NCBI GenBank assembly: GCA_000004695.1
Contig: CM000155.2
Location: 1,504,001-1,568,000, forward strand
Length of the DNA stretch: 64,000 nt
DNA from: Dictyostelium discoideum
Taxonomy: Eukaryota
Direction of reading: 5' to 3'
Below the pieces are notes generated by a model. It was not told where the DNA came from and did no database searches. It worked only from the letters and a program-made list of their open reading frames with translations. Below are positions 3,263-25,500 of this stretch, in pieces. Made by a program: the position numbers and the translations under genes. Position 1 is the first letter of the stretch. The number at the start of each line of letters is the position of its first letter.

Positions 3263-3510
3263 AAAGTTTATATATTTTTTTTTTTATATGGTATAAGGGT
3301 GGGAATTTTATTATATTTTTTCAAGTTTTATAATTTATTTTTTTAAATATTAATAAAATAGAATTAAAAACATTACTGGTACCAGTAATACTATTTTTTA
3401 AAATAAAAAAATATTAAATTAATAAATAAATTCATTAAAAAAAAAAAAAAAAAAAAAAAATAAATTAAAAAAATAAATATTGTAAATAACTTCTCAAACT
3501 AGCTTCTTTT

Positions 3511-3610
3511 GTTGTAGGGAATTTTCCATAAAATTTCACTACAGTAGCGTAGTGAATTTTATTATTTAATTTCACTACAGTAGCGTAGTGAAAAAAAAAA
3601 ATCACTGACC
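3511..3610. repeat. left inverted terminal repeat; contains a 2x direct repeat ttcactacagtagcgtagtgaa
   Basis: reverse complement of 6872-6971 with a single mismatch. Confidence 0.85.
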
Positions 3611-3712
3611 TTAAATTTTTTTTTTTTTCAAAAAACAAATAAAGTTTATTAAATTGAAATTTTATTTTTTGTTTTAATTATTATTTTATTTATTTTTATT
3701 AAAAATAATGGT

Positions 3713-3745
<33 letters not shown>

Positions 3746-3886
3746 CAATTTTTTTTTTTTAAATTTTTTTCAATTTTTATTTGTTTATTAAATTGTAATT
3801 TTATTTTTTGTTTTAATTATTATTTTATTTATTATTATTGTTAATTTTTTTTTTTTTTCAATTTTTTTTTTTTTAATTTATTTTTA

Positions 3887-6445
3887 TTAATTTATTTTTA
3901 TTAACTCCCTGAGTTGTTCAATTGCTTGATTTACCATATCACTGTAAACACTGCACACAATTGAATTTTTTCTAGCTTTGTTACCTCTGGTGCATTTGAT
4001 GTTTTTGCATTTTCCTTTGTATACAAAAAAGTCCAAATATAATTCGTTTTCTATTACAGTTTTTACACAATGTTGGTGAAATTGTTTTGATTTTAATTCT
4101 AATGCTTCTAACATCATATTTGAATTTTTAACGATTAAAGCATCACCACTATTTACATATAGTACTTTGGCTGCTTTTTCGAGGAATTTAGTCAAATTTT
4201 CCTCTGAATCTAACTATTCTTCATTGCCATATTCAATGGCTAAATTTCTTAAGAGTTTTATCGAATCTATTAATTCTTCGATCATTCTTTTTTTTTGAAA
4301 TTTTTTTTTATTTTGTTTTTTCAATTTTTTTTTTTTATTTTGTTTTTTCAATTTTTTTTAAGTTTTATTTTTTTTTATTTTTTTTTATTTTTTTTAACAA
4401 ATGTAATTTTTTTTTATTTTTTTCAATTTTTTTTTTTTTTAATTTTTAATTTTTTTTTTTTTTTTTAATTTTTTGTGTTGATTTGTGTTTTTTTTGTTTT
4501 TTTGATTTGGCCACTTGTTTTTATTTTCTAATTTCCCCATACCCCCTTCTATTAATTGCAACCAAATCAAGTTCTAATTTTTGTGTCCTTGTTGACTTTG
4601 TTTTTGCAACTTTTTTTGAAGGTATCACATTAACGATTTTTCCTATTGATGGTGATTTGGAAGGTGATTTAAATGGTGATTTAAATGGTGAATTGGAAGG
4701 TGATTTAAATGGTGAATTGGAAGGTGAAATGGATGGTGATTTGGAAGGTAATTTAAATGGTGATTTGGAAGGTGATTTAAATGGTGATTTAAATGGTGAA
4801 TTGGAAGGTGAAATGGATGTTGATTTGAGAGGTGATTTGGATGTTGATTTGAGAGGTGATTTGGATGGTTTAGAATGTGATTTTAAAGGAGGTTTATTAA
4901 CAATTGGTATCTTATGAGGACGGCCTCTGAGACGTTTAACAGTTGTTACTATACCACTACCAGATTGTGGTATAGTATATGATGGTATTATTTGCACTTG
5001 AGGTATTGGTGGTACTATTTCTTTTAAATTCATATCCTTTCTCAAACAATTCATTAAATTTGGCGCTGTTGGATTATTATTTAAAAATGGGAGTATTTCT
5101 TCTTGTTCCATTTCATTATTGAGTTTGTGTTGAAATGGATTATCGTTAATGATAGGTGGAATATTTGATGGATTGTTAAGAGCATCTTCCAAAACCCTAA
5201 ATGGATCATTTTGTGTTACCAATTGATGCAAGTTGAAATTGGATAAATCCTTACCAAGATTTTTAATAAACTGAACCAGAAATTCAATAACTTTCCCATC
5301 ATTATTTAAATAAAGACCAGAAGTAAAAGAATCAATATCTTTTTGTATGTTTGGCGATGTTCTAAAAATATCAACTGTTGATTGTTTATAAAGAACCAAC
5401 TTGTTACCTCCTACAAAACCAGAGTATAAACCTTTTTTTTGAAGGCTATTGATTCCATCTTCCAAAAATTCAAGTTTATAAAGTTGTTTAGTGTCTTCCT
5501 GTATTACCTTATGAATTTTACACAAAATCAATATTTTCTATTAGAATTAAATATAAAATTTGTTAATTATTACTGTTTCATATATTATTAATCTTTATGT
5601 TTTAATTACTTACATTATTTTTTTTAATTTCTAGAAAGAGTACAGTATCACCAACTTTCAATCCCTTTGGTGGTTTTGAATTCCATTGATTTTGGTAACT
5701 TGTGAGATTTTCAAGAATAATAGCTGTTATTTCTTCTTTTGAAACATCTGAAACACCAATTGATTGAGAGTCTTGTTCTGATTGCACATTAATAAACAAA
5801 GGTACAATACCAACAGCTTGAGATGGTGTCATTTTAATTGTTCTTGTTTTTGTATTATTGTAATCATACAAAGCTTGTTTTAATAGTTCAGAAAGAGACC
5901 TAGAAGTACCATCAAGAAAACTAAAATTTATTTATAAATGATTAATTAATAAACATATCGATAATTTATATTGTTCAAAATATCATACTCTTGTTGTTTT
6001 AATTTTGAGATCCTCTCCTTGATAGTTCGATTCAATCTTTCTACCATACCTTGAGTTGTTGGTGTACGAGGAGCTCCATGTGCTGACTTGGAGCCTGGAA
6101 AAAGTTTTAGGAATTCTTTTTGGACTTTGTTTTTAAATTCACGTCCATTATCGCAGTGCCATACTTTCACAGAGTTTTAATATAAAAGTTACAAAACATC
6201 ATATAAAAAATGATTGATACCAAACCTTTTATTCTATTTCGTTGGCAAATGTCACACGTATCTACTGCATCAGATACAAAAGAATACAATCCCATATTAT
6301 AATATTTAGTCTTGTAGTTCCCATAGGTTGCATCTCTTCCTATATGACCTTTATGCATTTCTTCCCAGAGTGATACCATTCTATAATCATTAATTACTTC
6401 TAAACACACTTCTTTTGATATATTTCTATCTCCGCCACAATTCAT
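3887..6445 (-). CDS. integrase-like transposase, multi-exon (exons approx 6445-6227, 6170-5997, 5929-5602, 5531-4521, 4195-3887)
   Basis: Consecutive minus-strand ORFs from the track: HHCC zinc finger (H..H…CDICQ), catalytic core, C-terminal module, AT-hook RGRP plus (SPLKS)n repeats, and a C-terminal 102-aa ORF. One intron is supported at about 5997-5930 (GTATGA…TTTTAG; joins …ISKLKQQ to DFLDGTSRSL…). A second at about 6226-6171 joins …RNRIK to VWHCDNGREF. Confidence 0.55.
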
Positions 6446-6871
6446 GACTTTTTTTTCAATTCTAAATAATTTTTCTTTTCTGTTTCTGTTTTTTATTGGT
6501 CAGAATTTAAAAAATGATTGTGTTATGGTAAGGAAAAATATTTACTCATCATGTAAAAATTTATAATTTTTATGTTTAGTATTTTCAAAATTATTATCTT
6601 CAATAAATTTTAAATAATTTATAATTTCATTTATTTTATCTTGTTTCATTTTGGGAAAATGAAAATAAAAAAAAAAAAAAAAAAAAAAAAAGTTTTGTTG
6701 GGGAAAAAAAAAAAAAATTTTGGCGCAAAAAAAAAAAAAAAAAATAAAATAAAAAAAAAAAAAAATTAAATTAAAAAAAAAAAATTAAAAAACTTTAATA
6801 GAACTTATAATCAAATAAAAGATAATAATTTAATAAACTTTATTTGTTTTTTGAAAAAAAAAAAAATTTAG

Positions 6872-6971
6872 GGTCAGTGATTTTTTTTTTTCACTACGCT
6901 ACTGTAGTGAAATTAAATAATAAAATTCACTACGCTACTGTAGTGAAATTTTATTGAAAATTCCCTACAAC
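6872..6971. repeat. right inverted terminal repeat
   Basis: reverse complement of 3511-3610. Confidence 0.85.
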
Positions 6972-7025
6972 ATCTTTCATCAATTTCAATTGTAATCATT
7001 TTTTTTAATTTTTTTATTTATTTTT

Positions 7026-7060
<35 letters not shown>

Positions 7061-7909
7061 TTAATTTGTTTTTTTTTTTTTATTTTTTTTTTTTTTTTTT
7101 TTTATTTTTTTTTTTTATTAATAATCTACATTCATTTGATTGCAATTCATTTGAAGTTTCAATAACTTTCCAAACATGTGTCATTAATGTTCTATCTTAA
7201 ATAATCTAAAGTCCATAAAAATGATTAAATAAAATGAAAATTATTAAATAATAAAAAAATAAAAAATAAAAAGATTTATGGAAATGGAATAAATATAGTA
7301 ATGAAAATAAATTTTTTTTTATTTTTTTTTGAAAGAGAAAATATATACCATTATATGAAAAAAAAAATAAATTTTATTTCAACCACTTTTTTTTTTGGGT
7401 ATGAAAATTTATATAGTTATTGGTGGTGTGGTGGTGTGAAGTGGGGTATGGTGGGGTAAAAAATATAATATTATTTCAAACTCAGCTGAATATAATTTAC
7501 ATAAAGTGGCATGAAAATTTATTTAATTTTATAGTGGTTTTTAATAAATTGTGGTGGGCTATTATAAATTTAAATATGAAAATTAATAATAAATTTTGTA
7601 TTTTAAAATTAATAATAATAAACACAGTAAATTGTATTTTTTCAACAACAAAAAATATATTTTTTTGGTTTTTTTAATTATACAATTAAATTGAAAATTA
7701 TATAAATTTTCATGTGAAAAAATATTAATTTTATAGAGTGTGGTTTTTTTATTCCAACCCAATATATTTATAAAGCCGCTGTGGAGAGAGTATACAATAA
7801 CGGTACCAAATTAAATAATAACTCCAAATTCATTATATATGACTGTTCAATTAAATGCGAACTCTCAAAATAAATTAATAAATTAAAAATCAAATTAAAA
7901 AAGAAATTA

Positions 7910-8243: not shown

Positions 8244-9479
8244 CTAATTGTGAAGAATATTTATATCTTTAATTGATTTTGCAAATTTAATATTTTGAGC
8301 TTTAATTTTATAATATTCTTCAAATGCTTGTTTTGGACCATATTCACCACTATATAAAACTTTTAAAAACTTATCAGTTGTTTGTGCACCTCCAACTTCT
8401 AATTGATGAAACAATGAAAGATCAAAAAATATTGTTTTAGAGTAATTTAAATATTTTTCATATATTGACATTGATTCATCCAATAGAAATGGTTTATATT
8501 TGATTGTTACATATGGTTCTAAATATTGAAAAACGTCTAAATGAGTTATTTTATTATCACCATTGCTTATAAATAAACTTTTTAATCTTATTAATTTTGA
8601 ATAAACATTCTCAATTTGACCAGGTGAAAATGGAACTCCAACAACGGTATCATTATTATCAAATTTCTTTTCTTTTATTGATTTCATTAAACTAATGGAT
8701 GAATCATGATACTTTTGTAAATGATTTAGCCAATCTACCATAAAATCATCGATATCTATTTTAACAAATTGTTCAACTATTTTATGATCAACAAATTCAA
8801 ACATATGATCTAAAAGAAAAATATCATTTTCAACTGGCAATGAAATTTCACCATTGTGAATTAAAATTGAAGGGAAAAAAGCTAAAAAACAATATTCATC
8901 TGGATCATAACAAGATATTTTATATGCATCATTTAATGATATATCTTGTTCCCATCCATTTGATTCAATAATAATTGTACCAGTTGGTTTAAAAATATCT
9001 TGATCAATTTCTTTACCACCCTTTATGCATTCTAAAACATTATTTACTAATTCTTCAATATAAACTTTACAATCATCTATTAATTGTAAAAATGATTCTT
9101 TTACTTTTTCACTATAAATACTATCAATTAAATTTATAATACTCTCATTTTGTGATTTAATTTTTGAAAATAATTTACTTTCAACTGATGGTGATTTAAT
9201 AAAATCAGATTTAAATGATAAATCAAGTAATCTTTCTGGTGGGTTCAATGATTGAAATAATTCTCTACATTGCATATAATGACTTTTTTCACCATTTTCA
9301 ATTTCTATTAAATAATCTTGAAATAAAAATTTAGTTTTTGAACACAATGATTGTTTACATAATTTATTTAATTTCTCTATTAAAGTTTTTGCATTTCTTA
9401 AATTATATTTATTTTCAACTGTAATAGATTTTTCTTTAGGTTCATGAATTACAATTCTTTCTTCATAATCTGTAAACAT
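8244..9479 (-). CDS. hypothetical protein, 411 aa, no recognisable domain
   Basis: long uninterrupted ORF with ordinary amino-acid composition in an AT-rich context. Confidence 0.45.
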   Translation of the reverse strand: MFTDYEERIVIHEPKEKSITVENKYNLRNAKTLIEKLNKLCKQSLCSKTKFLFQDYLIEIENGEKSHYMQCRELFQSLNPPERLLDLSFKSDFIKSPSVESKLFSKIKSQNESIINLIDSIYSEKVKESFLQLIDDCKVYIEELVNNVLECIKGGKEIDQDIFKPTGTIIIESNGWEQDISLNDAYKISCYDPDEYCFLAFFPSILIHNGEISLPVENDIFLLDHMFEFVDHKIVEQFVKIDIDDFMVDWLNHLQKYHDSSISLMKSIKEKKFDNNDTVVGVPFSPGQIENVYSKLIRLKSLFISNGDNKITHLDVFQYLEPYVTIKYKPFLLDESMSIYEKYLNYSKTIFFDLSLFHQLEVGGAQTTDKFLKVLYSGEYGPKQAFEEYYKIKAQNIKFAKSIKDINILHN

Positions 9480-10012
9480 TTTAAAAATAACTTTATAAAA
9501 AAAAATAAAAAAATAAAAATAAAAAATAAATCAGACAATTAATTACATGGAATTAAAATTATTTATAATAAATGGGTTTGAATATTTACCTTTTATTTAC
9601 AATGTAATAATGTGAATGGATTTCTTTTGACTTATTTATCACCATATAAATTTTAAAATCTTGTGGAATTAGTTGATTTAAAATTTAAAAAGATTAAGAA
9701 AAAAAAAAAATTTTTGTTTTTTGTATTTTATTTTTTTTTTTTTTTTAATTTTTTTTTTGATTTTCAAAAAAATATCAGATTTTTTTTTTTTTTTAGTGAA
9801 AAAACCTTAATAAAAAAAAAACATAAAATTAATTATAAAAAAAAAAAAAAAAATGAAAAAAAAGGCCCAACTTTTTTTTGATAAAAAAAAAAATAAAAAA
9901 ATAAAAAAATAAAAAAAATAAGTTTAAAAAAATGATCAAATCGTATTTTTTATTTTAGTGTTAATTTTTTTTTTTTTTTTAGTGTTAATTTTTTTTTTTG
10001 GTGAAAATAAAA

Positions 10013-11207
10013 TTATTCCAATTCCTGATCGGATTGTCTTGATCTTTTCCTGGGGAGATTATCGTCAATGGTTTCAACTTCTTGGACTAATTGTTTGACA
10101 GAATCACATAGTGATTTTAAGATATCAATCACTTGTTGGTTATGATCACCTTGCTTTTGGAAAATTTCCAAATGTTTTTGTTTAAGATCATTGCTCTTTT
10201 TCGTAACCTTGAGGAGCTCATTCTTTACCAAGAATGTATTTTGCAGTGTTTCATGGACCTTTGTCTTAACACTGGTATGGTGTTGTTTATCTACCAAGTT
10301 GCTGGTTCTAATTTCGTTTTGGATTTGGTTTTATGTTAGTTGGCTACCAGAAGTTGCAAGCACTCTAGTAAACTCGATTTGGCTCTGGAGCTTGATAACC
10401 AATTTTGAAATTGGATAGAACACTCTTTTTAGTTGTGGAATGAGAGCTTTGACTTGATTGCTTACAATTTGATGTTTTGCTACCATAATTTTCTTCTTGA
10501 ATTCTATCTTCATCTTCGGTTTCCTCATCAGTCTCTTCATCAACAGTTTGCGATGGAGTTAATTTTGGCGTGTTACCATTTTCAGATGGAGTTGGGTTTG
10601 GTATAGATGCAGTGGTTTTGAGTCCATGTTGATTAATATACATAACTATATTATTGTACTTGTTCATCAATACTTGACTTTTGCCACTGAATTTGTTTCT
10701 GGTGAATAGATTGACTAGATGGGATCTGAACTTTTTAGGGCAGTCATTGTTTAACTTGTGGACATAAACAACCATTTTGTGAAATTCTTCATAACATTTG
10801 TAATGTTGATCTTTTTCTGAGTCATCTGTAACCCTTGTAAGATAATTTCTGAGTTCTGGACTGAATAGGAAATTTAATGATGTGATATTATTTGCAAAAT
10901 GCTCCACAATGAAATCGTTGGCCTTCTTGTAAGTTACACGTTTCCCACCATTTTTATTTTCAGCTTTTTGGCGAATACAATATGAATAGAAAAGAACGTC
11001 ATCATTGTCTTTGATTAGATCATAGTTTTCTTTAAGAAATGAGCACTCTAGAAATGGTTCAAGTAAACCATCCACTGTGCTTGGGGTTGCGTCAACAAAT
11101 CCAACCATTCCTTTCTGAGAATTAATATATCTGGTGTTAGTTGCAAATGAAAGTGTGACAGTATCAGTAGTGTTGATGTATATTGGGTCCGAATCATCAA
11201 CTGACAA
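10013..11207 (-). CDS. hypothetical protein; frame interrupted between 10297 and 10365 (intron or pseudogene)
   Basis: ORFs 10365-11207 (280 aa) and 10013-10297 (94 aa, coiled-coil-like) lie on the same strand but in different frames. An acidic DEETDEETEDED stretch is present. Confidence 0.3.
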
Positions 11208-12007
11208 TGATTCATAATTCTCTGCTTTTTATTGTAGTTTAATGAATTTTGCGATTTTGTAAAATGTAAGTTTGCCAACTTCATATCTTATATTTGGAAT
11301 TTGGTAATGCAAATAATTATCATTCATTTTTTTATTTATTTTTTTTTTTTAAATACATTTTTTTTTAGTCGTTTGAGGTTTGACAAAATATTGATGAACC
11401 ATATTTAATTTTTAAATAAAATATCATTAACAACCAAATATTTAAATATTTCCATTATTATAAAATCTTATTGGGCTAACAACTAAAAAATCTTTATGTG
11501 GTAACATCTAAAAAAATCTTTAATAATTAAATATTCTATTAACTAAAATCATTTCAGTATAACAGCTAAAAAATCTAGTTATTGTGAAAAATTAAAAAAT
11601 AAAAAAATAAAAAAATAAAAAAATAATAAAAAAAAAATAAATTTTTTTTTTTTTTTTTATATTATTTTTTTTTATAGATAAAAAACCTAAAATGGAAAAT
11701 CATTTAATAAATAAAAAAAAAAAAATCATAACATTATTTAAAATAATAAAAACTATACTCAGTTGTGTAGGAATTTTTTGTACATTTAAAAATAATTTTA
11801 TAGGTAATTCAATAGATTTTTTATATGACGATTCTATTAATAATTTAAATCGAGATTTATATATTTTTGATCCTACAGCACTAAACAAATACTTATATAG
11901 GAATAAAACCAATTGGAATTATAGACAAAAAAAAGAAACAAAACAATGTAAAAAAAAAAAACTCTGTTGTCAAAATTGATGACCGTTGTCAGTTAGATAC
12001 TCAACAG

Positions 12008-12112
12008 ATGTCAATGGTCAAAAGAATTGTTAGACCAATTTTTATGAAAAAATATACAAAGTCAAGGTTATATTGCGAATCTATTATCGATTTCCTATTA
12101 TATTATTTAATT
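12008..12112 (+). CDS. PIF/Harbinger-type DDE transposase (DDE_Tnp_4), exon 1
   Basis: true ATG at 12008; donor GTAAGT at 12113. Confidence 0.55.
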
Positions 12113-12247
12113 GTAAGTAAAAAAAAAAAAAGAAATTATAATTTAAATTTTTTTTTTCCATTTCTATTTCTATTTTTTAAAATTATTATTATTTTTATTA
12201 TTACTATTTAAAAAAAAAAGTACTAATTAAAAATAATATAATTTCAG

Positions 12248-12856
12248 AATGGAGGAAAGTTAATTGTCCACTCAAACACTTTTAAATGTTCAATTTCAAC
12301 ACTCTCTAGATATAAAAGAGATGGAATTCCTATAATGTGTGAAGCTTTAAGATTTGTAATTCCAACATGGAAACCTGAACCGAATACCATTTATGCAATT
12401 GATTGCACTACTTCTCCAATATGTAGACCCCACCCGGGACAAAGAGAGTTTTATAGGGGAGACCAAGGTTATCACTTTTTAGGTGTTCAATTAATAGTTG
12501 ACATTACCAAATTTTTAATTGTTGATGTAATAATTGGCAAGGGTAGAAATAATGATTCAGGTTTGGCAAATATTTCAGGTACAACAGATTTGGTGTTAAA
12601 AAATAAATTGGTCATTCTTGCAGATAGAGGATACTCTAAAAATAAATTCGTTACTCCCAATAGTCTTGATTTAATAGAAGGTGAACCAACAGAAGAACTT
12701 GTAACCGAATTTAGAGATTTTGTTTCCAAAAATAGATCATGTGTCGAAAATGCAAACCAAAGATTCAAGTCTCTGGATTTATTCAACAAACCTATAAAAT
12801 CTCGTCCAATTTCTCATGCCTATACAACTTTGTTGGGGGTATATTGCAAATATTAA
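12248..12856 (+). CDS. PIF/Harbinger-type DDE transposase (DDE_Tnp_4), exon 2
   Basis: Acceptor …aatttcag at 12247; in frame with exon 1. Catalytic motifs AIDCTTSPICRP (IDGT-like), LADRGYS (DxGY) and RSCVENANQRFKSL (R..VE..f..LK). Stop at 12854-12856. Confidence 0.65.
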   Translation, partial: NGGKLIVHSNTFKCSISTLSRYKRDGIPIMCEALRFVIPTWKPEPNTIYAIDCTTSPICRPHPGQREFYRGDQGYHFLGVQLIVDITKFLIVDVIIGKGRNNDSGLANISGTTDLVLKNKLVILADRGYSKNKFVTPNSLDLIEGEPTEELVTEFRDFVSKNRSCVENANQRFKSLDLFNKPIKSRPISHAYTTLLGVYCKY

Positions 12857-13222
12857 TTTAATATATAATTCTCAAAAACATGTAATATCTAGTTTCGAAG
12901 AAAAAGTGAGACTTATTCATGGGAATTATCTCTAAAAAAAAAAAATAAAATAAAATAAAATAAACACTGCTCCAGTAAAAAACAAATATCTTTTTTATTT
13001 TTCTATTTTTATTTTTATAACTAAAAAAAAAGAAATAACCGACAATTTAGCACAAAATTTTTTTTTTTTTTTTTTTTTTCGCTAAAATAAATTGTGAAAA
13101 AACCTTATTTTAGATATTAATTAATTATTAATAATTAATAATAATATTAATTATTAATTATTAATTATTTCCAAAGCAAAGAAAATACTTTCATTATTTT
13201 AAGTTCTCTCTTTTATTATAAC

Positions 13223-13372
13223 TTTTTTTTTTTTTTTTTACCTGTGATCAGACCTTCAAGGAATGTCCTTGTGTCTTTTCGGCGGTGTTTGTTTTTTTTT
13301 TTTTTTTTTTTTTTTTTTACCTGTGATCAGACCTTCAAGGAATGTCCTTGTGTCTTTTCGGCGGTGTTTGTT
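13223..13372. repeat. two direct copies of a 52-bp unit (acctgtgatcagaccttcaaggaatgtccttgtgtcttttcggcggtgtttg), each preceded by a poly-T run
   Basis: copies at 13240-13291 and 13319-13370; read on the minus strand each copy ends in poly(A), like extreme 3'-end fragments of poly(A) retroelements. Confidence 0.5.
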
Positions 13373-13463
13373 AAACGGTTTTATTTTTATTATTCAATTG
13401 TATTAAATTTTTTAAACTATATTATATCTTTCATTATAACTGAACATATATTAAAATTTATAT

Positions 13464-14745
13464 TTTTTTTTTTTTTTTTTTGATATAAATAAACTATTGT
13501 AGTATACAATTAGTATGTTATTTTTATTTATTTATTTTAGGTTTTTTAGTTTTTGTGAATTTAAAATGGTATGTTATTTTAGATTAGGTAATTAATAATT
13601 AATTGGTGGTGTAATTGTTGGAATTGGTTCATTTGTGTTTATGCTCCATTCTTTTTTAAATTTTTTGATGGTTTCAGACCATTGGGTTTCTTTTTGAGTT
13701 TTTGTGAAGTTGTTTTTAATTGAGTATTGGTTAAAGTTTGATAACGTTCTTGAATATTCCAATCTTATTAGCTTGTGCCATTTTGATTTTAATATATCAT
13801 AATCTAGTGTTGTGTTGTTTATTTGGTTGTTCCAATTATCAATTGATTGAGTTATATTGATGTCAAATAATGATTTGCATAACCATATCCATATTTGGTG
13901 AATAACTAATGAGATTATGTTCCAATATGCATGTGTTCTGACTAGATCAAGATTTGTGTTTATATAATTCCAGTTGAACCTGTATTTTTTATATTGTGCG
14001 TTTTCTGCAAAATGAAAATTAATATTGATAGTTGGATCTGGTTTAAATGCTTTGTTGTTTGTTTGTGGTTTATAAATGAGTGTGTATAATTTTGTTGTTT
14101 GGTTTTTTGTTAGTGACCAGTTTTTGTTTCCATTGCAATTTTTATATATAAAATATTTTAATTTGTCGTGGTTTATGAAGTTGATTGTGTGCTGACAATT
14201 GAAAAACAAATGACCATAGGGATCATTATTCATTTCATTGTTGCAAATGGGGCAAACTTTGTTGTGTAGATGATTAATCGGAAGACATCTAGCATGGAAT
14301 CTTTGCATTGTATCACGGCCTTTTGGATCTTTTAATTTTTGAATTTTGACAAATAGTTGGTCGTATGTGTATTTCCATAATAGTTGTATTGATTGTTGGT
14401 GCGAAGTAAGAAGTAGATCTGAATATTTCTTGCCAATATAGTCTTTTGATTTACATTGGTGATTGTTGAGTATTGTCGAGTAGATTTCTTTGAGTGTTGG
14501 TGGTAGTGGAATATTATTTGTGTTTAATGTTTGAGAGGTTTGATTTTTTATTAATATTGGTTGTAGGATTTGAACTTTATCTTTTAGATGTCCAATTTGA
14601 GTTGCATAGTTTTCCCATTCTTTTTTGATTTTTATAAGGTATGGAGAAGAGATTGATTTGTTGATGATTTGATCCATCCAACTTATCATGTATATTGAAT
14701 TATTTGCAGATTTATGCATTTGTAAAAATCTGTTGTATATCCAAA

Positions 14746-14747
<2 letters not shown>
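13464..14747 (-). mobile_element. 5'-truncated TRE3-like non-LTR retrotransposon fragment (ORF2 C-terminus + 3' UTR + poly(A))
   Basis: ORF 13592-14719 ends with KLKDPKGRDTMQRFHARCLPINHLHNKVCPICNNEMNNDPYGHLFFNC. This is homologous to, but diverged from, the C-terminal zinc-finger region of the ORF2 copies at 14919 and 20225. Poly-T (poly(A) on the minus strand) at 13464-13481. Confidence 0.55.
13592..14719 (-). pseudogene. ORF2 C-terminal fragment of the truncated TRE3-like element
   Basis: homology to the ORF2 C-terminus of the neighbouring elements; no RT core upstream. Confidence 0.5.
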
Positions 14748-14821
<74 letters not shown>

Positions 14822-14918
14822 TGGATTAACAAGATTGATATATGTCCATCTGTGTTAATACGAGTTTTATTTAATATTTATTTAAAGGCTTATCATTTAA
14901 GCTGAAGGGTTATTTTAA

Positions 14919-17900
14919 TCATATGAATTGATCAAAAGATATAATATTTGGGAGAGATGATTCTGGAATACAATAGTAATTAGCTGTAGTTTTTCTTAGC
15001 TTGATCGTTGAAGTGAGAAGGATCTTAGGATCTTTGAAGTTATTATGGTCTTTTGCTGATAAGTTTTTCAGATCTTTTGCTTTTTTGATGTATTCTAGAG
15101 TGGCCAATTTGTGCCATTTCTTTAGAAGGGAGCTGTATGATAGTGATTCATCTGTTAAAGGATCTTCACTGTATATTTGATTGCAAATCCAAATCCAAAT
15201 GTTGTGGAGGATAAGGGCCATTAGGTTTCTATATGCGAATGATCTGGTTAGATCATAGTCTATTGCTTTATAGTTCCATTCAAAGTATTCTTTGTGGAAT
15301 CTGTGGTTGGCGTAATCTGCATTCACTTCTTGATCTTTTTTGGCTGTCGGTGATAATTTTGGAGTTATTCTACTAATGAAATTGTTATTTTGCCTAATTC
15401 TTGTATGGTGCCAGTTTTTACCTTTGCCTGTGGTAATATAGATGAAATTTTTGAGTTTATTTATTTTTATGAATTGTTTTGTTTTCTTGCATGAGAAGAA
15501 CAGGTGACCGTATGGGTCTTTGCTCATATCTTCTTTGCAGAGTGGGCATTGTTTGTTGTGAAGGTAGTTTATTGGAAGGCATCTGGCATGGAATCTAAAC
15601 ATTGTATCTCTTGTTTTAGGGTCTTTTATCTTCAGTATGTTGTTGAAGAGTTGATTATAGCTGTAGCCTCTTAAGTTTAGAGATGATTGGAATTCCGTTT
15701 TAGGGATGGTTGGATTTTGGTCTTGAATTGTGGTATACCATTCTGCCAGTGAAAGTGGTTGTCCATTTTCGTTTTTTATGGATGTGAGATTATTGTTGAA
15801 GATTGCTTTTTTTATTCTTATTTTGTTCCATTCGTCTAAGTTTTCTTTTAGGTATCTGGATGTGAATTTGTTTTTTTGGATCTGATATTCCCAGCTTTTG
15901 TGATGAGATGAGTTTGTTTGTTTGGTTTCTAGTGCTAGGATGAACTGGTTTATGATCCAAAGTTTCTGCGCCAGTTGTCTCAATTCTATATTCCAAATGT
16001 TCCAGCCCCCTACTTTTAGTGGGTATCTTGCTCTTTTGGTTCTCATTAAATTAATAACTTGAAATCCACTAGCATTTTTGTTGTTTGGTGCCGATAAAAA
16101 CCATTCGACTAGTTTATTGATTTGGTTTAATTCCTCTTCCTTAAAGTTCTCTACATATGAATAGTAGGTTAATTTAGAGAGTGCGAATGCTTTGAGGATG
16201 TTGGTTTTGGTTTTGATTGTTGAGTCAGTGGTTTTCCATAGTACTAAGGATGATCTTATTGTGTTTAATATTTCTGGCATTTTTCTTGTTATCCCTTTGC
16301 CTGTGAAGAAGTATCCCAAGTATCTTTCTGGATTTGTAGATATTGGAATTCTTTGGTTGGTATTGTCTGGGTTGCCTATAAGAATTGATGAAGATTTGTC
16401 GATGTTTAGTTTTGAGGAAGTGGCTTTGCAAAATGAATTGAAGTGTTGTAGTACTAATTCAAGTTGTTGAGAGTCTGGGACCATTGAAGCCGAGTCGTCT
16501 GCAAAGCTTTGGAATTTCTCTCTGTGGTTGCTGTTGTTTAGAGGAAGGCCAGTAATTCGGTCATCTTGTAAAATTTTTCTAGCTAAAGCCTCTATTACAA
16601 GGACGAACAGGGTGGGTGATAGTGGATCTCCTTGTTTAACTCCTCTTTTGATCTCAAAGGGTATAGTAGTTCTACCATTAATTTCAATTCTTGCTTCAGA
16701 TTTGGTGAGTAGATTCATTATCAGGTTGATTATATTGGTTGGAATGTTGATGTGTTGTAGTGATCTAAGTATTGAACCGTGTGAGATCGAGTCAAAAGCT
16801 TTTTCGAAATCATATAGTGTAATTATTCCGTTAATTCTTTTATCATTACAATAGTTGATTAATTCGTTCATTGATATGATATTATCTAGAATGAATCTGC
16901 CTGGTACGAAACCTTTTTGATTGTGGTTGATCACTTTCGTTAGTATTGGGATTATTCTATTGTTTATTAGCTTTGAGTGGATTTTATATATACAATTAGC
17001 CAGTGTAATTGGTCTTCTGTTTTTGATTAGTTCGGGGTCTCCCTTTTTAGGTATCGTGATAATGAGGCCTTCTTTGTAATTTTTGCTAATTAGATGAGGA
17101 TTTCTTAGAGTGTCGTTGAATGCTGAGGCCAGTATTGGAGCTAGTTTTTCTTTGTGTGTTATGTAGAATAAGTTTGGAATTCCATCTGGACCTGGAGATT
17201 TGTGTGGGTTCAGTTGTTTTATTACTTCTAGGATCTCTTGTGAGGTGAATTCATTTTCAAGGTTGTCCCATGTTGAGTCCCTGGTCACTGTCCAATTTTC
17301 CAACATTTCGTAATGAGATGGTGGGTCATCTTCTTTGTAGTCATAAAGATTTGAGTAATATTTTACGTATTCTTCTTCGATCAATTCCTGTTTGTTAATT
17401 GTTCTACCTTGTGCATCTTTTACTGCGTTGATGGTGAAATCATTGTGTCTTTTCTTGATTCTCGCGGAGATGTACTTGAGTGAGGTTTCTTCGCAATAGT
17501 TGTTCAATTCTTGTTTAAGTTGTTCTTCTCTTTTTTTAGATTCATTTATTGCTGAAAGGGTTGCGAAGGCTTGGTCTTTAAATTCTGTCTCTAGTAGGGA
17601 GATTAGATTTTTGATGTTTGCCTTATTGTTGTAGTCGTTTTGTTTTTGAAATTCGGTGTATAGTTGTTTTATTTTGTTCAGTAAGCTGTTGAGTTGAGAG
17701 AAGGAAATAGAGTTATGGTTGGCTGACAGCTCCCTTGAATAATCGTTAAGTAGGAAGTCTATTTTCTTAAGCATTATGCTTGAGAGGATTGAGGATTTTT
17801 TTAATCTCCATCTGCGCTTGTTCATCTGTATGTTGGGTAGAGTGAAAGTGGTTGATAGGAAGTTGTGATCTGATAGAGGTATGTCGTTAATTTTTGGGGG

Positions 17901-18623
17901 GATTAGGTTCCTTAGGTATAATTGGCTGTAGTTGATTAAGCTATTGTTAAGGTATATTCAGTCTAGTCTCCTTTCCAAGATTCTTGTGAGGTTATTGTTT
18001 GTGTTGTGTATCGTTCTTGAGAAGGTGGGTCTTTTATTTAGTTGGTCCATATCCATTAGGTTATTTGAAATTCTGATGGCTTCGATTACTGTGGCCATCT
18101 CATCTGGGGATTGTGTTGTCAAGTTGCCTTGGTCATCATTTGATGTGTGATTGTCATTGAAGTCTAAACAGTTGAAGTCTCCTGCTATGATGTCGATGTT
18201 TTTATTAGGGTTAGACGTTAGGTTGTGGTATTGGTTGTTGAAGTGTTTGTTTAGTGTTGAAGCTAGTGTTTTTCTTTTATCAGGTTGGGCCGGGGCGTAT
18301 ATGGCCAAGATTCTCGTTGTGGTATCTTTTATTAGAATGTCTGATATTATTAGTCTACCTTCTATTATGAATATTGGTGAGAGTTTTATGTTTTGGTTGT
18401 TGTGGTTTAGTATTCCTATTCCGTTGCCTCTGTTGGTTGCGCTAATGATGGAGCCAGGGAATAGCTGGTGTGCTTGTGTTGCGTCGGCGTTGAGTTCATT
18501 GACTATGGTTAGTGCCAATGAGTTTGGGGGGGATTGGGATTTGATAAAGTCTGTTTTGTTTTTGAAGGAGGTGTCAGTGCCCCAACCTCTGACATTCCAT
18601 TGGTTGATTTTGATTACTACCAT
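14919..18623 (-). pseudogene. TRE3-like ORF2 (APE + RT + zinc finger), copy A, interrupted
   Basis: The APE ORF 17958-18623 and the RT ORF 14919-17825 are separated by a stop or frameshift in 17826-17957. Confidence 0.55.
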
Positions 18624-19882
18624 TATGAGATGATATCGATCTCCTCTTGGGAGTCGTATAGCTGCGGTTTGGATGGTGAAGGGTAGATACTCTCTATGAA
18701 GCTCTCAATGATTCCTTTACTTTCTTTTTTGACAGGTGTCTTAGGGGTGGATGGGATGTAAGGGTTGCTTCTATTTATTGTTGGTGAGAGTTGGGTGACT
18801 TCATTGTTTGAGTGGATTTCCTCGTTCTTGCGTTTATGTGATGGAGGGATGTTTAGTGTCTTCTCTCTGTTTTCCGAGGATGAATGGATGTTATTGCTCG
18901 TTTTGTTGGCATTGTCTTTTTGGATGGCGTTGGATGTTGTGGTAGTGGTTGTGGTGGGTTTGACAGATTGAGATTCTGCTGGGTTTTTGGGGGGAAGAGG
19001 TTGAGATGACTTTTTTGCTTGGGCTTTTTTCTCTTGGGGGTGATTGTTTTTCAGACTGATTGTTTGCTGGGGGTTGTTTGTTTGTTGTTGTGGTTTTGGT
19101 TGAGAGGATTTGATTGCTATCCTGTTTTGGATGTTGGGAGGATCATCTGTCATCTCATCTTCTAATGGTTCTTCCGTGTTGTTTGACTTCTCTACTTTCT
19201 TGTTTTTCTTTGNTGAGGAGTAGGTTTTGGTGGCCGTTCTGATGGTAAAGTTTGCGATTTCTGTAATGTGTTGGCCAGATTTCATTTGATCGCCTATTTT
19301 GCATTCTATTAGACCGAATACTATGAGGTGGTCGGTGGAGTATATAGTATTGTATATTGCATAGGGTATTTCTTCTGCAAAGGCAGTTTTGATGAGGGCG
19401 TCCACTATTCCTGCCTTTTCTCTGGGAATTCTTACTCTTCCTGTGAGGACGTGGAAGTCTCTACTGGAGGTGATGAAGGTTCCCAATTTGCTTCTATCTC
19501 TAATGATATTTAGGAGAGATTGTTCGTTTTTAATCATCAGGTGGATCATTTTTCTAGTTCCTTTGCCTATGTATATCTTGTCGAATGGGATATCGTAGTT
19601 TGAGAGTGTTTTTCTCATTTCTTCTAACCCCTTGAGATCCATTTTGGGGAATTCGAGTGTAATTGGGTAGAATCCGTTGTTCTTCTCATAGGTTGAGAGC
19701 GCAGTCATGTTCAATATGGTCTCGCAGTATTTGGAGATGTCTTTGAGGCCTATTGATAGTTTGGGGTAGGTCTCCTTTATCTCTGCTGTTTTTGTGGAGA
19801 ATTCCTTAATGAAGTTCTCCGATGCCTCGTCCATATGGGTGGAGGGGTTGGCCATTTTAGCCGCGTCTGCGTAGGAATTCAT
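18623..19882 (-). CDS. TRE3-like ORF1 (419 aa), copy A
   Basis: ORF with a basic/Q/T-rich C-terminal half. Contains one ambiguous base (n at 19212, giving X in the translation). Stop TAA overlaps the ORF2 ATG (TAATG) at 18621-18625. Confidence 0.6.
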   Translation of the reverse strand: MNSYADAAKMANPSTHMDEASENFIKEFSTKTAEIKETYPKLSIGLKDISKYCETILNMTALSTYEKNNGFYPITLEFPKMDLKGLEEMRKTLSNYDIPFDKIYIGKGTRKMIHLMIKNEQSLLNIIRDRSKLGTFITSSRDFHVLTGRVRIPREKAGIVDALIKTAFAEEIPYAIYNTIYSTDHLIVFGLIECKIGDQMKSGQHITEIANFTIRTATKTYSSXKKNKKVEKSNNTEEPLEDEMTDDPPNIQNRIAIKSSQPKPQQQTNNPQQTISLKNNHPQEKKAQAKKSSQPLPPKNPAESQSVKPTTTTTTTSNAIQKDNANKTSNNIHSSSENREKTLNIPPSHKRKNEEIHSNNEVTQLSPTINRSNPYIPSTPKTPVKKESKGIIESFIESIYPSPSKPQLYDSQEEIDIIS

Positions 19883-20082
19883 CTCGATGGGATTCCTTTG
19901 AATCGGCGATTTGGTATGTTAGATCTGTAGATCGTGGTGGATTGGTGATTTTTTTTGAAAGATTGGTTAAAATTGACCGAGATTAAAGATAGAAAAGGAT
20001 GAATTACTTTTCACGTGTATCTTGTATCCTCTTGATCGCGGTACGGTTTTTTTTTCCAAATCTTTTGAGCAACTTGTCGTAG

Positions 20083-20127
<45 letters not shown>

Positions 20128-20224
20128 TGGATTAACAAGATTGATATATGTCCATCTGTGTTAATACGAGTTTTATTTAATATTTATTTAAAGGCTTATC
20201 ATTTAAGCTGAAGGGTTATTTTAA

Positions 20225-23200
20225 TCATATGAATTGATCAAAAGATATAATATTTGGGAGAGATGATTCTGGAATACAATAGTAATTAGCTGTTGTTTTT
20301 CTTAGCTTGATCGTTGAAGTGAGAAGGATCTTAGGATCTTTGAAGTTATTATGGTCTTTTGCTGATAAGTTTTTCAGATCTTTTGCTTTTTTGATGTATT
20401 CTAGAGTGGCCAATTTGTGCCATTTCTTTAGAAGGGAGCTGTATGATAGTGATTCATCTGTTAAAGGATCTTCACTGTATATTTGATTGCAAATCCAAAT
20501 CCAAATGTTGTGGAGGATAAGGGCCATTAGGTTTCTATATGCGAATGATCTGGTTAGATCATAGTCTATTGCTTTATAGTTCCATTCAAAGTATTCTTTG
20601 TGGAATCTGTGGTTGGCGTAATCTGCATTCACTTCTTGATCTTTTTTGGCTGTCGGTGATAATTTTGGAGTTATTCTATTAATGAAATTGTTATTTTGCC
20701 TAATTCTTGTATGGTGCCAGTTTTTACCTTTGCCTGTGGTAATATAGATGAAATTTTTGAGTTTATTTATTTTTATGAATTGTTTTGTTTTCTTGCATGA
20801 GAAGAACAGGTGACCGTATGGGTCTTTGCTCATATCTTCTTTGCAGAGTGGGCATTGTTTGTTGTGAAGGTAGTTTATTGGAAGGCATCTGGCATGGAAT
20901 CTAAACATTGTGTCTCTTGTTTTAGGGTCTTTTATCTTCAGTATGTTGTTGAAGAGTTGATTATAGCTGTAGCCTCTTAAGTTTAGAGATGATTGGAATT
21001 CCGTTTTAGGGATGGTTGGATTTTGGTCTTGAATTGTGGTATACCATTCTGCCAGTGAAAGTGGTTGTCCATTTTCGTTTTTTATGGATGTGAGATTATT
21101 GTTGAAGATTGCTTTTTTTATTCTTATTTTGTTCCATTCATCTAAGTTTTCTTTTAGGTATCTGGATGTGAATTTGTTTTTTTGGATCTGATATTCCCAG
21201 CTTTTGTGATGAGATGAGTTTGTTTGTTTGGTTTCTAGTGCTAGGATGAACTGGTTTATGATCCAAAGTTTCTGCGCCAGTTGTCTCAATTCTATATTCC
21301 AAATGTTCCAGCCCCCTACTTTTAGTGGGTATCTTGCTCTTTTGGTTCTCATTAAATTAATAACTTGAAATCCACTAGCATTTTTGTTGTTTGGTGCCGA
21401 TAAAAACCATTCGACTAATTTATTGATTTGGTTTAATTCCTCTTCCTTAAAGTTCTCTACATATGAATAGTAGGTTAATTTAGAGAGTGCGAATGCTTTG
21501 AGGATGTTGGTTTTGGTTTTGATTGTTGAGTCAGTGGTTTTCCATAGTACTAAGGATGATCTTATTGTGTTTAATATTTCTGGTATTTTTCTTGTTATCC
21601 CTTTGCCTGTGAAGAAGTATCCCAAGTATCTTTCTGGATTTGTAGATATTGGTATTCTTTGGTTGGTATTGTCTGGGTTGCCTATAAGAATTGATGAAGA
21701 TTTGTCGATGTTTAGTTTTGAGGAAGTGGCTTTGCAAAATGAATTGAAGTGTTGTAGTACTAATTCAAGTTGTTGAGAGTCTGGGACCATTGAAGCCGAG
21801 TCGTCTGCAAAGCTTTGGAATTTCTCTCTGTGGTCGCTGTTGTTTAGAGGAAGGCCAGTAATTCGGTCATCTTGTAAAATTTTTCTAGCTAAAGCCTCTA
21901 TTACAAGGACGAACAGGGTGGGTGATAGTGGATCTCCTTGTTTGACTCCTCTTTTGATCTCAAAGGGTATAGTAGTTCTACCATTAATTTCAATTCTTGC
22001 TTCAGATTTGGTGAGTAGATTCATTATCAGGTTGATTATATTGGTTGGAATGTTGATGTGTTGTAGTGATCTGAGTATTGAACCGTGTGAAATCGAGTCA
22101 AAAGCTTTTTCGAAATCATATAGTGTAATTATTCCGTTAATTCTTTTATCATTACAATAGTTGATTAATTCGTTCATTGATATGATATTATCTATAATGA
22201 ATCTGCCTGGTACGAAACCTTTTTGATTGTGGTTGATCACTTTCGTTAGTATTGGGATTATTCTATTGTTTATTAGTTTTGAGTGGATTTTATATATACA
22301 GTTAGCCAGTGTAATTGGTCTTCTGTTTTTGATTAGTTCGGGGTCTCCCTTTTTAGGTATCGTGATAATGAGGCCTTCTTTGTAATTTTTGCTAATTAGA
22401 TGAGGATTTCTTAGAGTGTCGTTGAATGCTGAGGCCAGTATTGGAGCTAGTTTTTCTTTGTGTGTTATGTAGAATAAGTTTGGAATTCCATCTGGGCCTG
22501 GAGATTTGTGTGGGTTCAATTGTTTTATTACTTCTAGGATCTCTTGTGTTGTGAATTCATTTTCAAGGTTGTCCCATGTTGAGTCCCTGGTCACTGTCCA
22601 ATTTTCCAACATTTCATAATGAGATGGTGCGTCATCTTCTTTGTAGTCATAAAGATTTGAGTAATATTTTACGTATTCTTCTTCGATCAATTCCTGTTTG
22701 TTGATTGTTCTACCTTGTGCATCTTTTACTGCGTTGATGGTGAAATCATTGTGTCTTTTCTTGATTCTCGCGGAGATGTACTTGAGTGAAGTTCTTCGCA
22801 ATAGTGTTCATGTTCAATTCTTGTTTAAGTTGTTCTTCTCTTTTTTTAGATTCATTTATTGCTGAAAGGGTTGCGAAGGCTTGGTCTTTAAATTCTGTCT
22901 CTAGTAGGGAGATTAGATTTTTGATGTTTGCCTTATTGTTGTAGTCATTTTGTTTTTGAAATTCTGTGTATAGTTGTTTTATTTTGTTTAGTAAGCTGTT
23001 GAGTTGAGAGAAGGAAATAGAGTTATGGTTGGATGACAGCTCCCTTGAATAATCGTTAAGTAGGAAGTCTATTTTCTTAAGCATTATGCTTGAGAGGATT
23101 GAGGATTTTTTTAATCTCCATCTGCGCTTGTTCATCTGTATGTTGGGTAGAGTGAAGGTGGTTGATAGGAAGTTGTGATCTGATAGAGGTATGTCATTAA

Positions 23201-23828
23201 TTTTTGGGGGGATTAGGTTCCTTAAGTATAATTGGCTGTAGTTGATTATGCTATTGTTAAGGTATATTCTGTCTAGTCTCCTTTCCAAGATTCTTGTGAG
23301 GTTATTGTTTGTGTTGTGTATCGTTCTTGAGAAGGTGGGTCTTTTATTTAGTTGGTCCATATCCATTAGGTTATTTGAAATTCTGATGGCTTCGATTACT
23401 GTGGCCATCTCATCTGGGGATTGTGTTGTCAAGTTGCCTTGGTCATCATTTGATGTGTGATTGTCATTGAAGTCTAAACAATTGAAGTCGCCTGCTATGA
23501 TGTCGATGTTTTTTTTAGGGTTAGACGTTAGGTTGTGGTATTGGTTGTTGAAGTGTTTGTTTAGTGTTGAAGCTAGTATTTTTCTTTTATCAGGTTGGGC
23601 CGGGGCGTATATGGCCAAGATTCTCGTTGTGGTATCTTTTATTAGAATGTCTGATATTATTAGTCTACCTTCTATTATGAATATTGGTGAGAGTTTTATG
23701 TTTTGGTTGTTGTGGTTTAGTATTCCTATTCCGTTGCCTCTGTTGGTTGCGCTAATGATGGAGCCAGGAAATAGCTGGTGTGCTTGTGTTGCGTCGGCGT
23801 TGAGTTCATTGACTATGGTTAGTGCCAA
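20225..23828 (-). pseudogene. TRE3-like ORF2, copy B, frameshifted
   Basis: The APE ORF 22746-23828 and the RT ORF 20225-22801 overlap out of frame. A 5-bp insertion (tcgat, about 23924-23928) near the ORF1/ORF2 junction is absent from copy A. Confidence 0.55.
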
Positions 23829-23936
23829 TGAGTTTGGGGGGGATTGGGATTTGATAAAGTCTGTTTTGTTTTTGAAGGAGGTGTCAGTGCCCCAACCTCT
23901 GACATTCCATTGGTTGATTTTGATCGATTACTACCA

Positions 23937-25190: not shown

Positions 25191-25427
25191 CTCGATGGGA
25201 TTCCTTTGAATCGGCGATTTGGTAAATTAGATCTGTAGATCGTGGTGGATTGGTGATTTTTTTTGAAAGATTGGTTAAAATTGACCGAGATTAAGGATAG
25301 AAAAGGATGAATTACTTTTCACGTGTATCTTGTATCCTCTTGATCGCGGTGCGGTTTTTTTTTCCGTAGTTGTATATTCCACATACCTAAAATTTATAAA
25401 TTATAACTATAAAATTTACATAAAAAA

Positions 25428-25500
25428 TGGAGAAGAAGGGTATCGATCCCTTTACCTCTCGCATGCTAAGCGAGCGCTCTACCATCTGAGCTACATCCCC
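25428..25500 (-). tRNA. tRNA-Ala (anticodon AGC)
   Basis: Minus-strand sequence GGGGATGTAGCTCAGATGGTAGAGCGCTCGCTTAGCATGCGAGAGGTAAAGGGATCGATACCCTTCTTCTCCA. It has an A box TAGCTCAGATGG, an anticodon loop CTTAGCATG and the G3:U70 Ala identity pair. The B box GGGATCGATACC is slightly atypical. TRE elements on both flanks argue for an active Pol III gene. Confidence 0.8.

Follow-up and report, generated by a model that had tools for sequence, protein, structure and literature searches.

What is DDB_G0292368, a short gene of Dictyostelium discoideum AX4 with one intron and the signature of a transposase: part of an element that still moves, a transposon gene taken over by its host, or the leftover of an element that has lost its mobility? 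The gene lies in a stretch of 64,000 nucleotides (assembly GCA_000004695.1, contig CM000155.2, positions 1,504,001 to 1,568,000 of the forward strand), which is called here the window and whose numbering is used below wherever no other locus is named. From our analysis we consider it probable that DDB_G0292368 is a stranded, immobilised remnant of a cut-and-paste DNA transposon from a branch, specific to dictyostelids, of the IS5-related PHIS superfamily (PIF/Harbinger-ISL2EU-Spy-Pangu).

The sequence-only reading of the window had proposed at this place a two-exon open reading frame (ORF), and its coordinates turned out to be exact (Table 1). The exons join in frame into a coding sequence of 714 nt for a protein that is short, as had been said, with an exact length of 237 residues instead of about 238, and that is identical (100%, full length) to the annotated DDB_G0292368 product, labelled in UniRef as 'DDE Tnp4 domain-containing protein'. 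The gene model and the domain call are thus already public and not new. It had also been suggested that the family has no link to described Dictyostelium transposons, which holds in the sense that we found no paper describing it, but not in the sense of a gene or domain escaping annotation; our literature search found no paper that mentions DDB_G0292368 and no relevant mention of the DDE_Tnp_4 domain in Dictyostelium. With a G+C content of 25% the window is typical Dictyostelium DNA, and the contrast between the exons (22.9% and 32.7%) and the non-coding sequence (16% in the flanks; for the intron see Table 1) is normal for this organism.

Table 1. Parts of the DDB_G0292368 gene, its catalytic residues and two further features considered in the text (positions in the window; HTH, helix-turn-helix; DDE, Asp-Asp-Glu)
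Feature	Position	Strand	Description	Basis
Exon 1	12008..12112	+	105 nt, 35 codons; encodes the start of the HTH region, C-terminal ...DFLLYYLI	translation; gap-free alignment to relatives across the splice site
Intron	12113..12247	+	135 nt, phase 0, GTAAGT...TTTCAG, 8.9% GC	
Exon 2	12248..12856	+	609 nt, 202 codons + stop; rest of the HTH region and the DDE/RNase-H-like catalytic core	
Catalytic Asp87	12401..12403	+	motif AIDCT	invariant column in 21-sequence alignment
Catalytic Asp161	12623..12625	+	motif LADRGY	invariant column in 21-sequence alignment
Catalytic Glu202	12746..12748	+	motif RSCVENANQRFK (R-x-x-VE)	invariant column in 21-sequence alignment
GGGGG run	12835..12839	+	possible 1-nt frameshift site removing the last helix; +1 frame is ORF 12816-12935, ...YIANINLIYNSQK	
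ORF proposed as upstream exon	11692..11979	+	not counted as part of the gene	

The product of DDB_G0292368 is a predicted transposase of the Harbinger/IS5 type (DDE_Tnp_4). The Pfam profile DDE_Tnp_4 (PF13359), a failure of which had been named beforehand as a possible refutation, matches residues 86-222 (profile positions 1-142 of 158) with 43.4 bits and an E value of 3.4e-11, above the curated cut-off of 24.8 bits, and DDE_Tnp_1 matches with 36.3 bits. The motifs IDCT, DRGY and R-x-x-VE, correctly recognised in the sequence-only reading, provide the catalytic triad D87/D161/E202, all on invariant columns of an alignment of 21 sequences (the AX4 protein and 20 relatives). The other invariant columns of this alignment are R95, H111, Q116, G134, N137, D138, Y164 and R198, so that the AX4 protein keeps 11 of 11, together with all near-invariant residues. 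On a family profile, which we built from 72 members and which has 424 match positions, the frame of exon 2 scores 163.7 bits. The AlphaFold2 model, based on the family alignment, has a mean predicted local distance difference test score (pLDDT) of 87.8 and a predicted template modelling score (pTM) of 0.81, and its three N-terminal helices (23-72) lead into a beta-beta-beta-alpha-beta core, after which comes a long helix bearing E202. The top Foldseek matches to this model in the PDB are the ISCth4 transposase, TnsB, retroviral integrases and piggyBac, that is, DDE recombinases of the RNase H fold, while a sequence search of the PDB with the AX4 protein gave no relative of solved structure. 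The architecture is that of an HTH region followed by a DDE nuclease; Pfam HTH_Tnp_4 is not reported for the AX4 protein, though it is for relatives.

The lineage of this protein is rare within a very large superfamily: a HMMER scan of 1.84 billion representative proteins gave 232 matches with E<=1e-3 and 66 with E<=1e-10, among which the named ones are from dictyostelids only and the remainder are unnamed metagenome proteins. The closest relative, from Synstelium polycarpum, is 46% identical, and no protein between 46% and 100% identity occurs in 5.8 billion 90%-clusters or in the 1.84 billion representatives. A look at conservation in other dictyostelids, which had been recommended earlier, gave no orthologue and no relative above 46% identity; D. 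firmibasis, D. dimigraforme and D. cf. discoideum were among the species whose annotated proteomes the searched databases contain. The D. firmibasis match, a 'Chromo domain-containing protein' of which at least 21 nearly identical versions are encoded on several chromosomes, has the Pfam domains Chromo, HTH_Tnp_4 and DDE_Tnp_4; that from 'D. cf. discoideum' has 684 residues and combines Peptidase_C48 (Ulp1) with the HTH/DDE region; a search that started from the D. firmibasis protein yielded a member in D. dimigraforme. In a neighbour-joining tree of the catalytic core (75 sequences, cyanobacterial IS5 as outgroup) a single clade unites the six dictyostelid sequences, with 53 of 100 bootstraps. 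The family motifs HPGQxxYYRGD and GKGxNND are common to dictyostelid and eukaryote-like sequences, but not to cyanobacterial IS5. To cyanobacterial IS5-family transposases the AX4 protein is 28% identical over 84% of its length (E 1e-13, 77 bits), and one cyanobacterial IS5 transposase, a copy of which has ATT on both sides, scores 121 bits on the family profile.

The intron deserves attention, since it could be taken for a sign of a host gene. A phase-0 intron is found at one and the same alignment column in three lineages (YYLI/NGGK in D. discoideum, FFLK/KGPN in D. firmibasis and CYIK/IGPG in D. cf. discoideum, the slash marking the intron), and it is thus an old feature of the transposon lineage. 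Because its position and phase are common to transposon copies of D. firmibasis and D. cf. discoideum, the intron is no mark of host-gene status, and its presence in the transposase gene here is no evidence of domestication.

Complete elements in other species show what the AX4 gene may once have been part of. Seven D. firmibasis loci were compared (L001, L002, L003, L005, L006, L007, L008), and they contain a DNA transposon of 3369 bp, apparently undescribed, of which there are at least nine copies of 99.5-100% identity (reference copy L005:3244-6612, CM069768.1). The element starts, after AAT, with GAGGTGTTTTCAC and finishes with GTAAACACCTC, followed again by AAT; its short terminal inverted repeats (TIRs) begin with GAGGTGTTT. 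In a paralogous host repeat the empty site runs uninterrupted as gcatcagAATcaggtgcagg, versus gcatcag-AAT-(element)-AAT-caggtgcagg in the filled one, and a second paralogous empty site, gcaactttAATgaaagacaac, gives the same outcome; from these two sites it follows that AAT is a true 3-bp target duplication of the D. firmibasis element. AAT is present in five of five complete insertions, two of them being those checked against empty sites, and a rearranged copy ends in ACT and ATT. A second ORF lies upstream of the transposase gene on the opposite strand (L005:3409-4452), so that the two are divergent; it has no match in Pfam or among PDB sequences and, at the sequence level, none to Myb, SANT or MADF, and it is conserved in D. 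dimigraforme (43.5% identity).

The D. firmibasis transposase carries its chromodomain at the N-terminus, and all seven fetched loci are at 4.71 Mb of chromosome 1 or near chromosome ends. The ORFs flanking L001, L003 and L007 are of the DIRS1 type (reverse transcriptase, RNase H, Dam-like methyltransferase, tyrosine recombinase), and the genome paper locates the D. firmibasis DIRS1 clusters at those same places (PMC11193728). This suggests that insertion of the DNA transposon into centromere-like heterochromatin may be directed by the chromodomain. The D. dimigraforme element (4.19 kb, L004:5422-9611, JBTAPM010000048.1) is a single copy amid ordinary genes (TFIIB, ETF-alpha), with TIRs of 35 bp beginning with GGGTGTTTG (GGGTGTTTGAAACAATTTAATTT...) and with unequal 3-bp flanks, TCT and CAT. 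In D. cf. discoideum the transposase gene (L010:8001-11725, JBTAPI010000007.1) has in the chromodomain's place an N-terminal Ulp1/Peptidase_C48 domain (35.4 bits) and adjoins a Ty3/gypsy-type polyprotein gene; a look for TIRs at this locus gave none.

Set beside these elements, the AX4 locus is poor in the hallmarks of a transposon. The best inverted pair between 9500-12008 and 12857-13245 has 13 nt with 1 mismatch, inside the range of 11-17 nt given by block-shuffled controls, and a general repeat search returned only A/T low-complexity pairs. The earlier statement that no inverted repeats are evident is borne out by this; the TIRs flanked by target site duplications that it was advised to look for do not appear above chance, and without ends a target duplication is unreadable. 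TIRs of the D. firmibasis type were considered and rejected, as the window has 24 loose matches versus 34 expected by chance, and the only nearby GGTGTTT cores sit in the wrong orientation within the retrotransposon tail described below. A gene for 393 residues (10013-11402, minus strand; length from the annotation of a second D. discoideum assembly) is divergent from the transposase gene and placed like a Harbinger partner ORF. It has no Pfam domain, and its comparison with the second ORF of the relatives gave an E value of 0.14 in BLASTP, nothing in tblastn and a probability of 0.4% in hhalign; the gene is unrelated to that ORF, and the remark of the sequence-only reading that a Myb/SANT partner is missing stands. 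The family profile detects no further copies in the 64-kb window, and there is no paralogue of DDB_G0292368 in the protein databases, these two being the sources of our copy-number evidence for AX4.

The protein itself is also incomplete. It covers only positions 158-366 of the 424 of the family profile (178.7 bits), with about 150 N-terminal profile positions missing. Typical relatives have 330-460 residues, of which 100-220 stand ahead of the HTH region and include a conserved 'tGl....F' motif; a family-profile scan of 9000-13600 in any frame gave no trace of this N-terminal region. The upstream ORF that had been offered as a possible additional exon (Table 1) proved unsupported, as it gives no family-profile signal, its best Smith-Waterman score against the N-termini of relatives is matched by 18 of 300 shuffles, and its G+C content of 18.4% resembles that of intergenic DNA. 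At the other end the protein stops about 15-20 residues short of its relatives and probably lacks the last C-terminal helix. If one G is deleted from the run of five (Table 1), the profile score rises from 178.7 to 181.7 bits and the end of the match moves from 366 to 381; a gain of only 3 bits is weak, and we take it as a hint that the C-terminus may have been lost by a frameshift in this run.

Taking these data together, we propose that the ancestral element would have had two divergent genes, one for a transposase with an N-terminal region, an HTH and an RNase-H-like DDE core, and the other a second ORF with no motif, and that it would have acted as its complete relatives do, inserting by cut-and-paste at AAT/ANT with a 3-bp duplication. 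The AX4 copy retains the HTH and the catalytic core with all invariant residues and the ancestral phase-0 intron, whereas both inverted ends, the second ORF, the N-terminal profile positions and probably the last C-terminal helix are missing. With its ends, its partner ORF and the N-terminus gone, it presumably cannot transpose, and it should be unable either to move itself or to be moved. The frame and all invariant residues are intact, which may mean that mobility was lost fairly recently or that there was some weak constraint. Several points weigh against such a relic. A fully open ORF with every invariant residue would be unexpected for a long-dead copy in a genome with 75% A+T, and it leaves room for selection, that is, for domestication; the truncation at the N-terminus was gauged on a poorly conserved part of the profile; the closest known relative, at 46% identity, reveals neither the source element nor when mobility was lost; and the copies searched for were those in the 64-kb window and the protein databases, so that degenerate copies or non-autonomous partners may exist elsewhere in AX4.

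The sequence-only reading had left a choice between a domesticated HARBI1-like gene and a Harbinger remnant, and it is the remnant that is better supported. A lineage-specific domestication, in which D. discoideum would have kept the HTH and nuclease core for a host function while the TIRs and partner ORF decayed, we regard as unlikely, although a good part of the data would suit it: within the sources named above the gene is single-copy, it has no TIRs, its ORF is intact and keeps the 11 invariant residues as well as all the near-invariant ones, the fold is predicted with confidence, the base composition of exons and intron is typical of a working Dictyostelium gene, and the protein is identical in the second D. 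discoideum assembly. The last point has little force, as the two assemblies are without mismatch over 6.3 kb around the gene and hence uninformative on selection. Domestications of a comparable kind are HARBI1 in vertebrates and ALP1/ALP2 in Arabidopsis. Against it, the best match in any other species searched, including the three annotated Dictyostelium proteomes, does not exceed 46% identity, and the lack of an orthologue argues against an old HARBI1-like event; the N-terminal region is absent, and probably the last helix too, and no partner protein is evident. Synteny was approached through the neighbour DDB_G0292336, for which there are no orthologues either.

That DDB_G0292368 still belongs to a functional or mobilisable element, its ends being too divergent to be noticed or lying beyond the neighbouring TRE3 insertion, is in our opinion very improbable. 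It is true that TIRs vary by lineage (GAGGTGTTT in D. firmibasis, GGGTGTTTG in D. dimigraforme, none found in D. cf. discoideum), and that the 3' end of a retrotransposon some 370 bp downstream (13223 onward) could have displaced the right end. However, no inverted repeat stands above the shuffled background in the flanks scanned, the divergent neighbour upstream shows no relation to the family's second ORF, the transposase lacks its N-terminal profile positions, and there is neither another copy in the window nor a paralogue in the protein databases. That the gene came in recently by horizontal transfer, from a bacterium or giant virus on which the amoeba had fed, and does not belong to an old resident lineage, is hardly credible. 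Bacterial IS5 transposases, at 77 bits, do score within the 70-82 bits or so of most eukaryotic and metagenomic matches, but the gene has a spliceosomal intron whose position and phase are common to three dictyostelid lineages, the dictyostelid sequences form one clade with IS5 as outgroup, and the HPGQxxYYRGD and GKGxNND motifs are those of dictyostelid and eukaryote-like sequences, whereas cyanobacterial IS5 has HHQKRFYSGKKK and GNGHQHD.

It is tempting to go further, although what follows is tentative and, taken as a whole, rather doubtful. DDB_G0292368 could be the sole trace in the reference D. discoideum genome of an undescribed, dictyostelid-wide IS5/Pangu-like lineage that repeatedly captured chromatin-related domains; the chromodomain version in D. 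firmibasis would have been recently active, its insertions, in the loci sampled, being confined to DIRS1 clusters, which are presumed centromeres; and in the AX4 gene the nuclease core could have been domesticated recently and in this lineage alone. If true, the insertion into DIRS1 clusters would parallel, in a DNA transposon, the targeting by chromoviruses. The standard list of DNA transposons in D. discoideum (DDT, Tdd-4/5, thug) contains, to our knowledge, no family of the Harbinger/IS5 type. In the D. firmibasis genome paper the transposon search relied exclusively on Repbase queries from D. discoideum (PMC11193728), an approach that would miss such a lineage. For DDB_G0292368 itself little changes, since it was annotated already and the domain call is confirmed. 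Its value may be rather that of a handle on an undescribed family of dictyostelid DNA transposons with clear ends and an AAT target, and the chromodomain element among DIRS1 arrays makes chromatin-directed targeting by a DNA transposase testable in tractable organisms.

Some observations on the surroundings are given here in their own right. The transposase gene sits in a block of orphan genes, formed by the 393-residue gene and DDB_G0292336 (8244-9479, minus strand, 411 residues), both having no Pfam domain and the latter no homologue outside D. discoideum-like samples. Downstream, the poly(A)-tailed 3' end already mentioned is the beginning of a stack of non-LTR (non-long terminal repeat) retrotransposon copies (13223-25200, minus strand), with RVT_1 ORFs at 14919-17825 and 20225-22801 and an endonuclease-like ORF. 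With tRNA-Ala(AGC) (25428-25500) upstream of it, the stack shows the pattern of TRE3, known to insert in such a position relative to tRNA genes (PMC5006619). Its outermost 3' end has a tandem 79-nt duplication (13223-13301 and 13302-13380), and the second D. discoideum assembly (L009) appears to have one retrotransposon copy fewer in the stack. A 14-nt exact direct repeat, GTGAAAAAACCTTA, at 9796-9811 and 13093-13108 brackets the upstream gene and the transposase gene, and a similar AAAAAACCTAAAAT is found near 11677; the repeat is probably due to chance or a common A-rich motif of the regulatory type.

The same window contains a separate polymorphism. A segment of 3463 bp (3510-6972) is missing from L009, which otherwise matches at 99.5-100%. 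It begins with TGTTGTAGGGAATTTTC and terminates in the reverse complement of it, it has imperfect (82%) inverted ends of about 360 bp (3400-3757 and 6727-7082), and it is accompanied by a 5-bp duplication, TCTTT, the empty site in L009 being AGCT-TCTTT-CATC. An ORF inside it (4521-5531, minus strand) has no Pfam match, and in L009 a gene for 269 residues spans the empty site. In these respects the segment resembles a DNA-transposon insertion that is polymorphic.

It remains to compare the family with the known systems. The PHIS superfamily is divided into groups according to the target duplication that they make (Han et al. 2015, PMC4482050): PIF/Harbinger proper duplicates TWA (TAA/TTA) and has a Myb/SANT second ORF, while Pangu elements, about 3.5 kb on average, duplicate ANT, a target found also in bacterial IS5, and have a second ORF with no known motif (PMC4482050). 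Pangu transposases were described as having no extra domains, and Pangu was not reported from Amoebozoa (PMC4482050). DDB_G0292368 shares with PIF/Harbinger and HARBI1 the Pfam domain, the order of HTH and then D..D..E, and the position of the Glu in a long helix within an R-x-x-V-E-x(6)-K motif, and the related complete elements resemble PIF/Harbinger in having a divergent pair of ORFs and in duplicating 3 bp of the target. Unlike PIF/Harbinger, the complete relatives duplicate AAT/ANT and not TWA, their second ORF has at the sequence level no match to Myb, SANT or MADF, and the core motifs of the family are IDCT, HPGQxxYYRGD and GKGHNND. Harbinger-type motifs are DGT and GSxHD. From HARBI1 the gene differs in that no orthologues of it were found in other species. 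The call of a PIF/Harbinger-type transposase made in the sequence-only reading is therefore right at the level of the superfamily, but not in the strict sense, given the AAT duplication and the second ORF of the complete relatives.

With chromoviruses and the Dictyostelium element Skipper-1 the D. firmibasis relative alone has in common a chromodomain fused to an integrating enzyme and copies in DIRS1-rich centromere-like regions (PMC5006619, PMC11193728). In those LTR retrotransposons, however, the chromodomain sits at the C-terminus of the integrase, whereas in the D. firmibasis DNA transposase it is N-terminal, and the AX4 gene carries no chromodomain. Bacterial IS5 elements (for instance Pseudanabaena WP_126385353.1) have a similar HTH and DDE layout and an N-terminal region with a G-x-x-x-x-F motif, and the ATT on both sides of the copy examined resembles an ANT-type duplication; they differ in being prokaryotic, with a single ORF and no intron, and in their motifs FYSGKKKHH and GNGHQHD, the cyanobacterial HHQKRFYSGKKK standing in place of HPGQxxYYRGD. 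Pangu is resembled by the D. firmibasis relative in the ANT duplication seen at empty sites, the size of 3.37 kb, the motif-less second ORF and the short TIRs, and differs from the relatives that carry extra domains, namely the chromodomain in D. firmibasis and the Ulp1 protease domain in D. cf. discoideum. On the traits of the complete relatives, the AX4 copy having no readable target site duplication, we provisionally suggest that the dictyostelid element fits Pangu/IS5, an assignment made by descriptive traits. The family of DDB_G0292368, for which we found no describing paper, is most likely an undescribed dictyostelid branch of the PHIS/IS5 superfamily.

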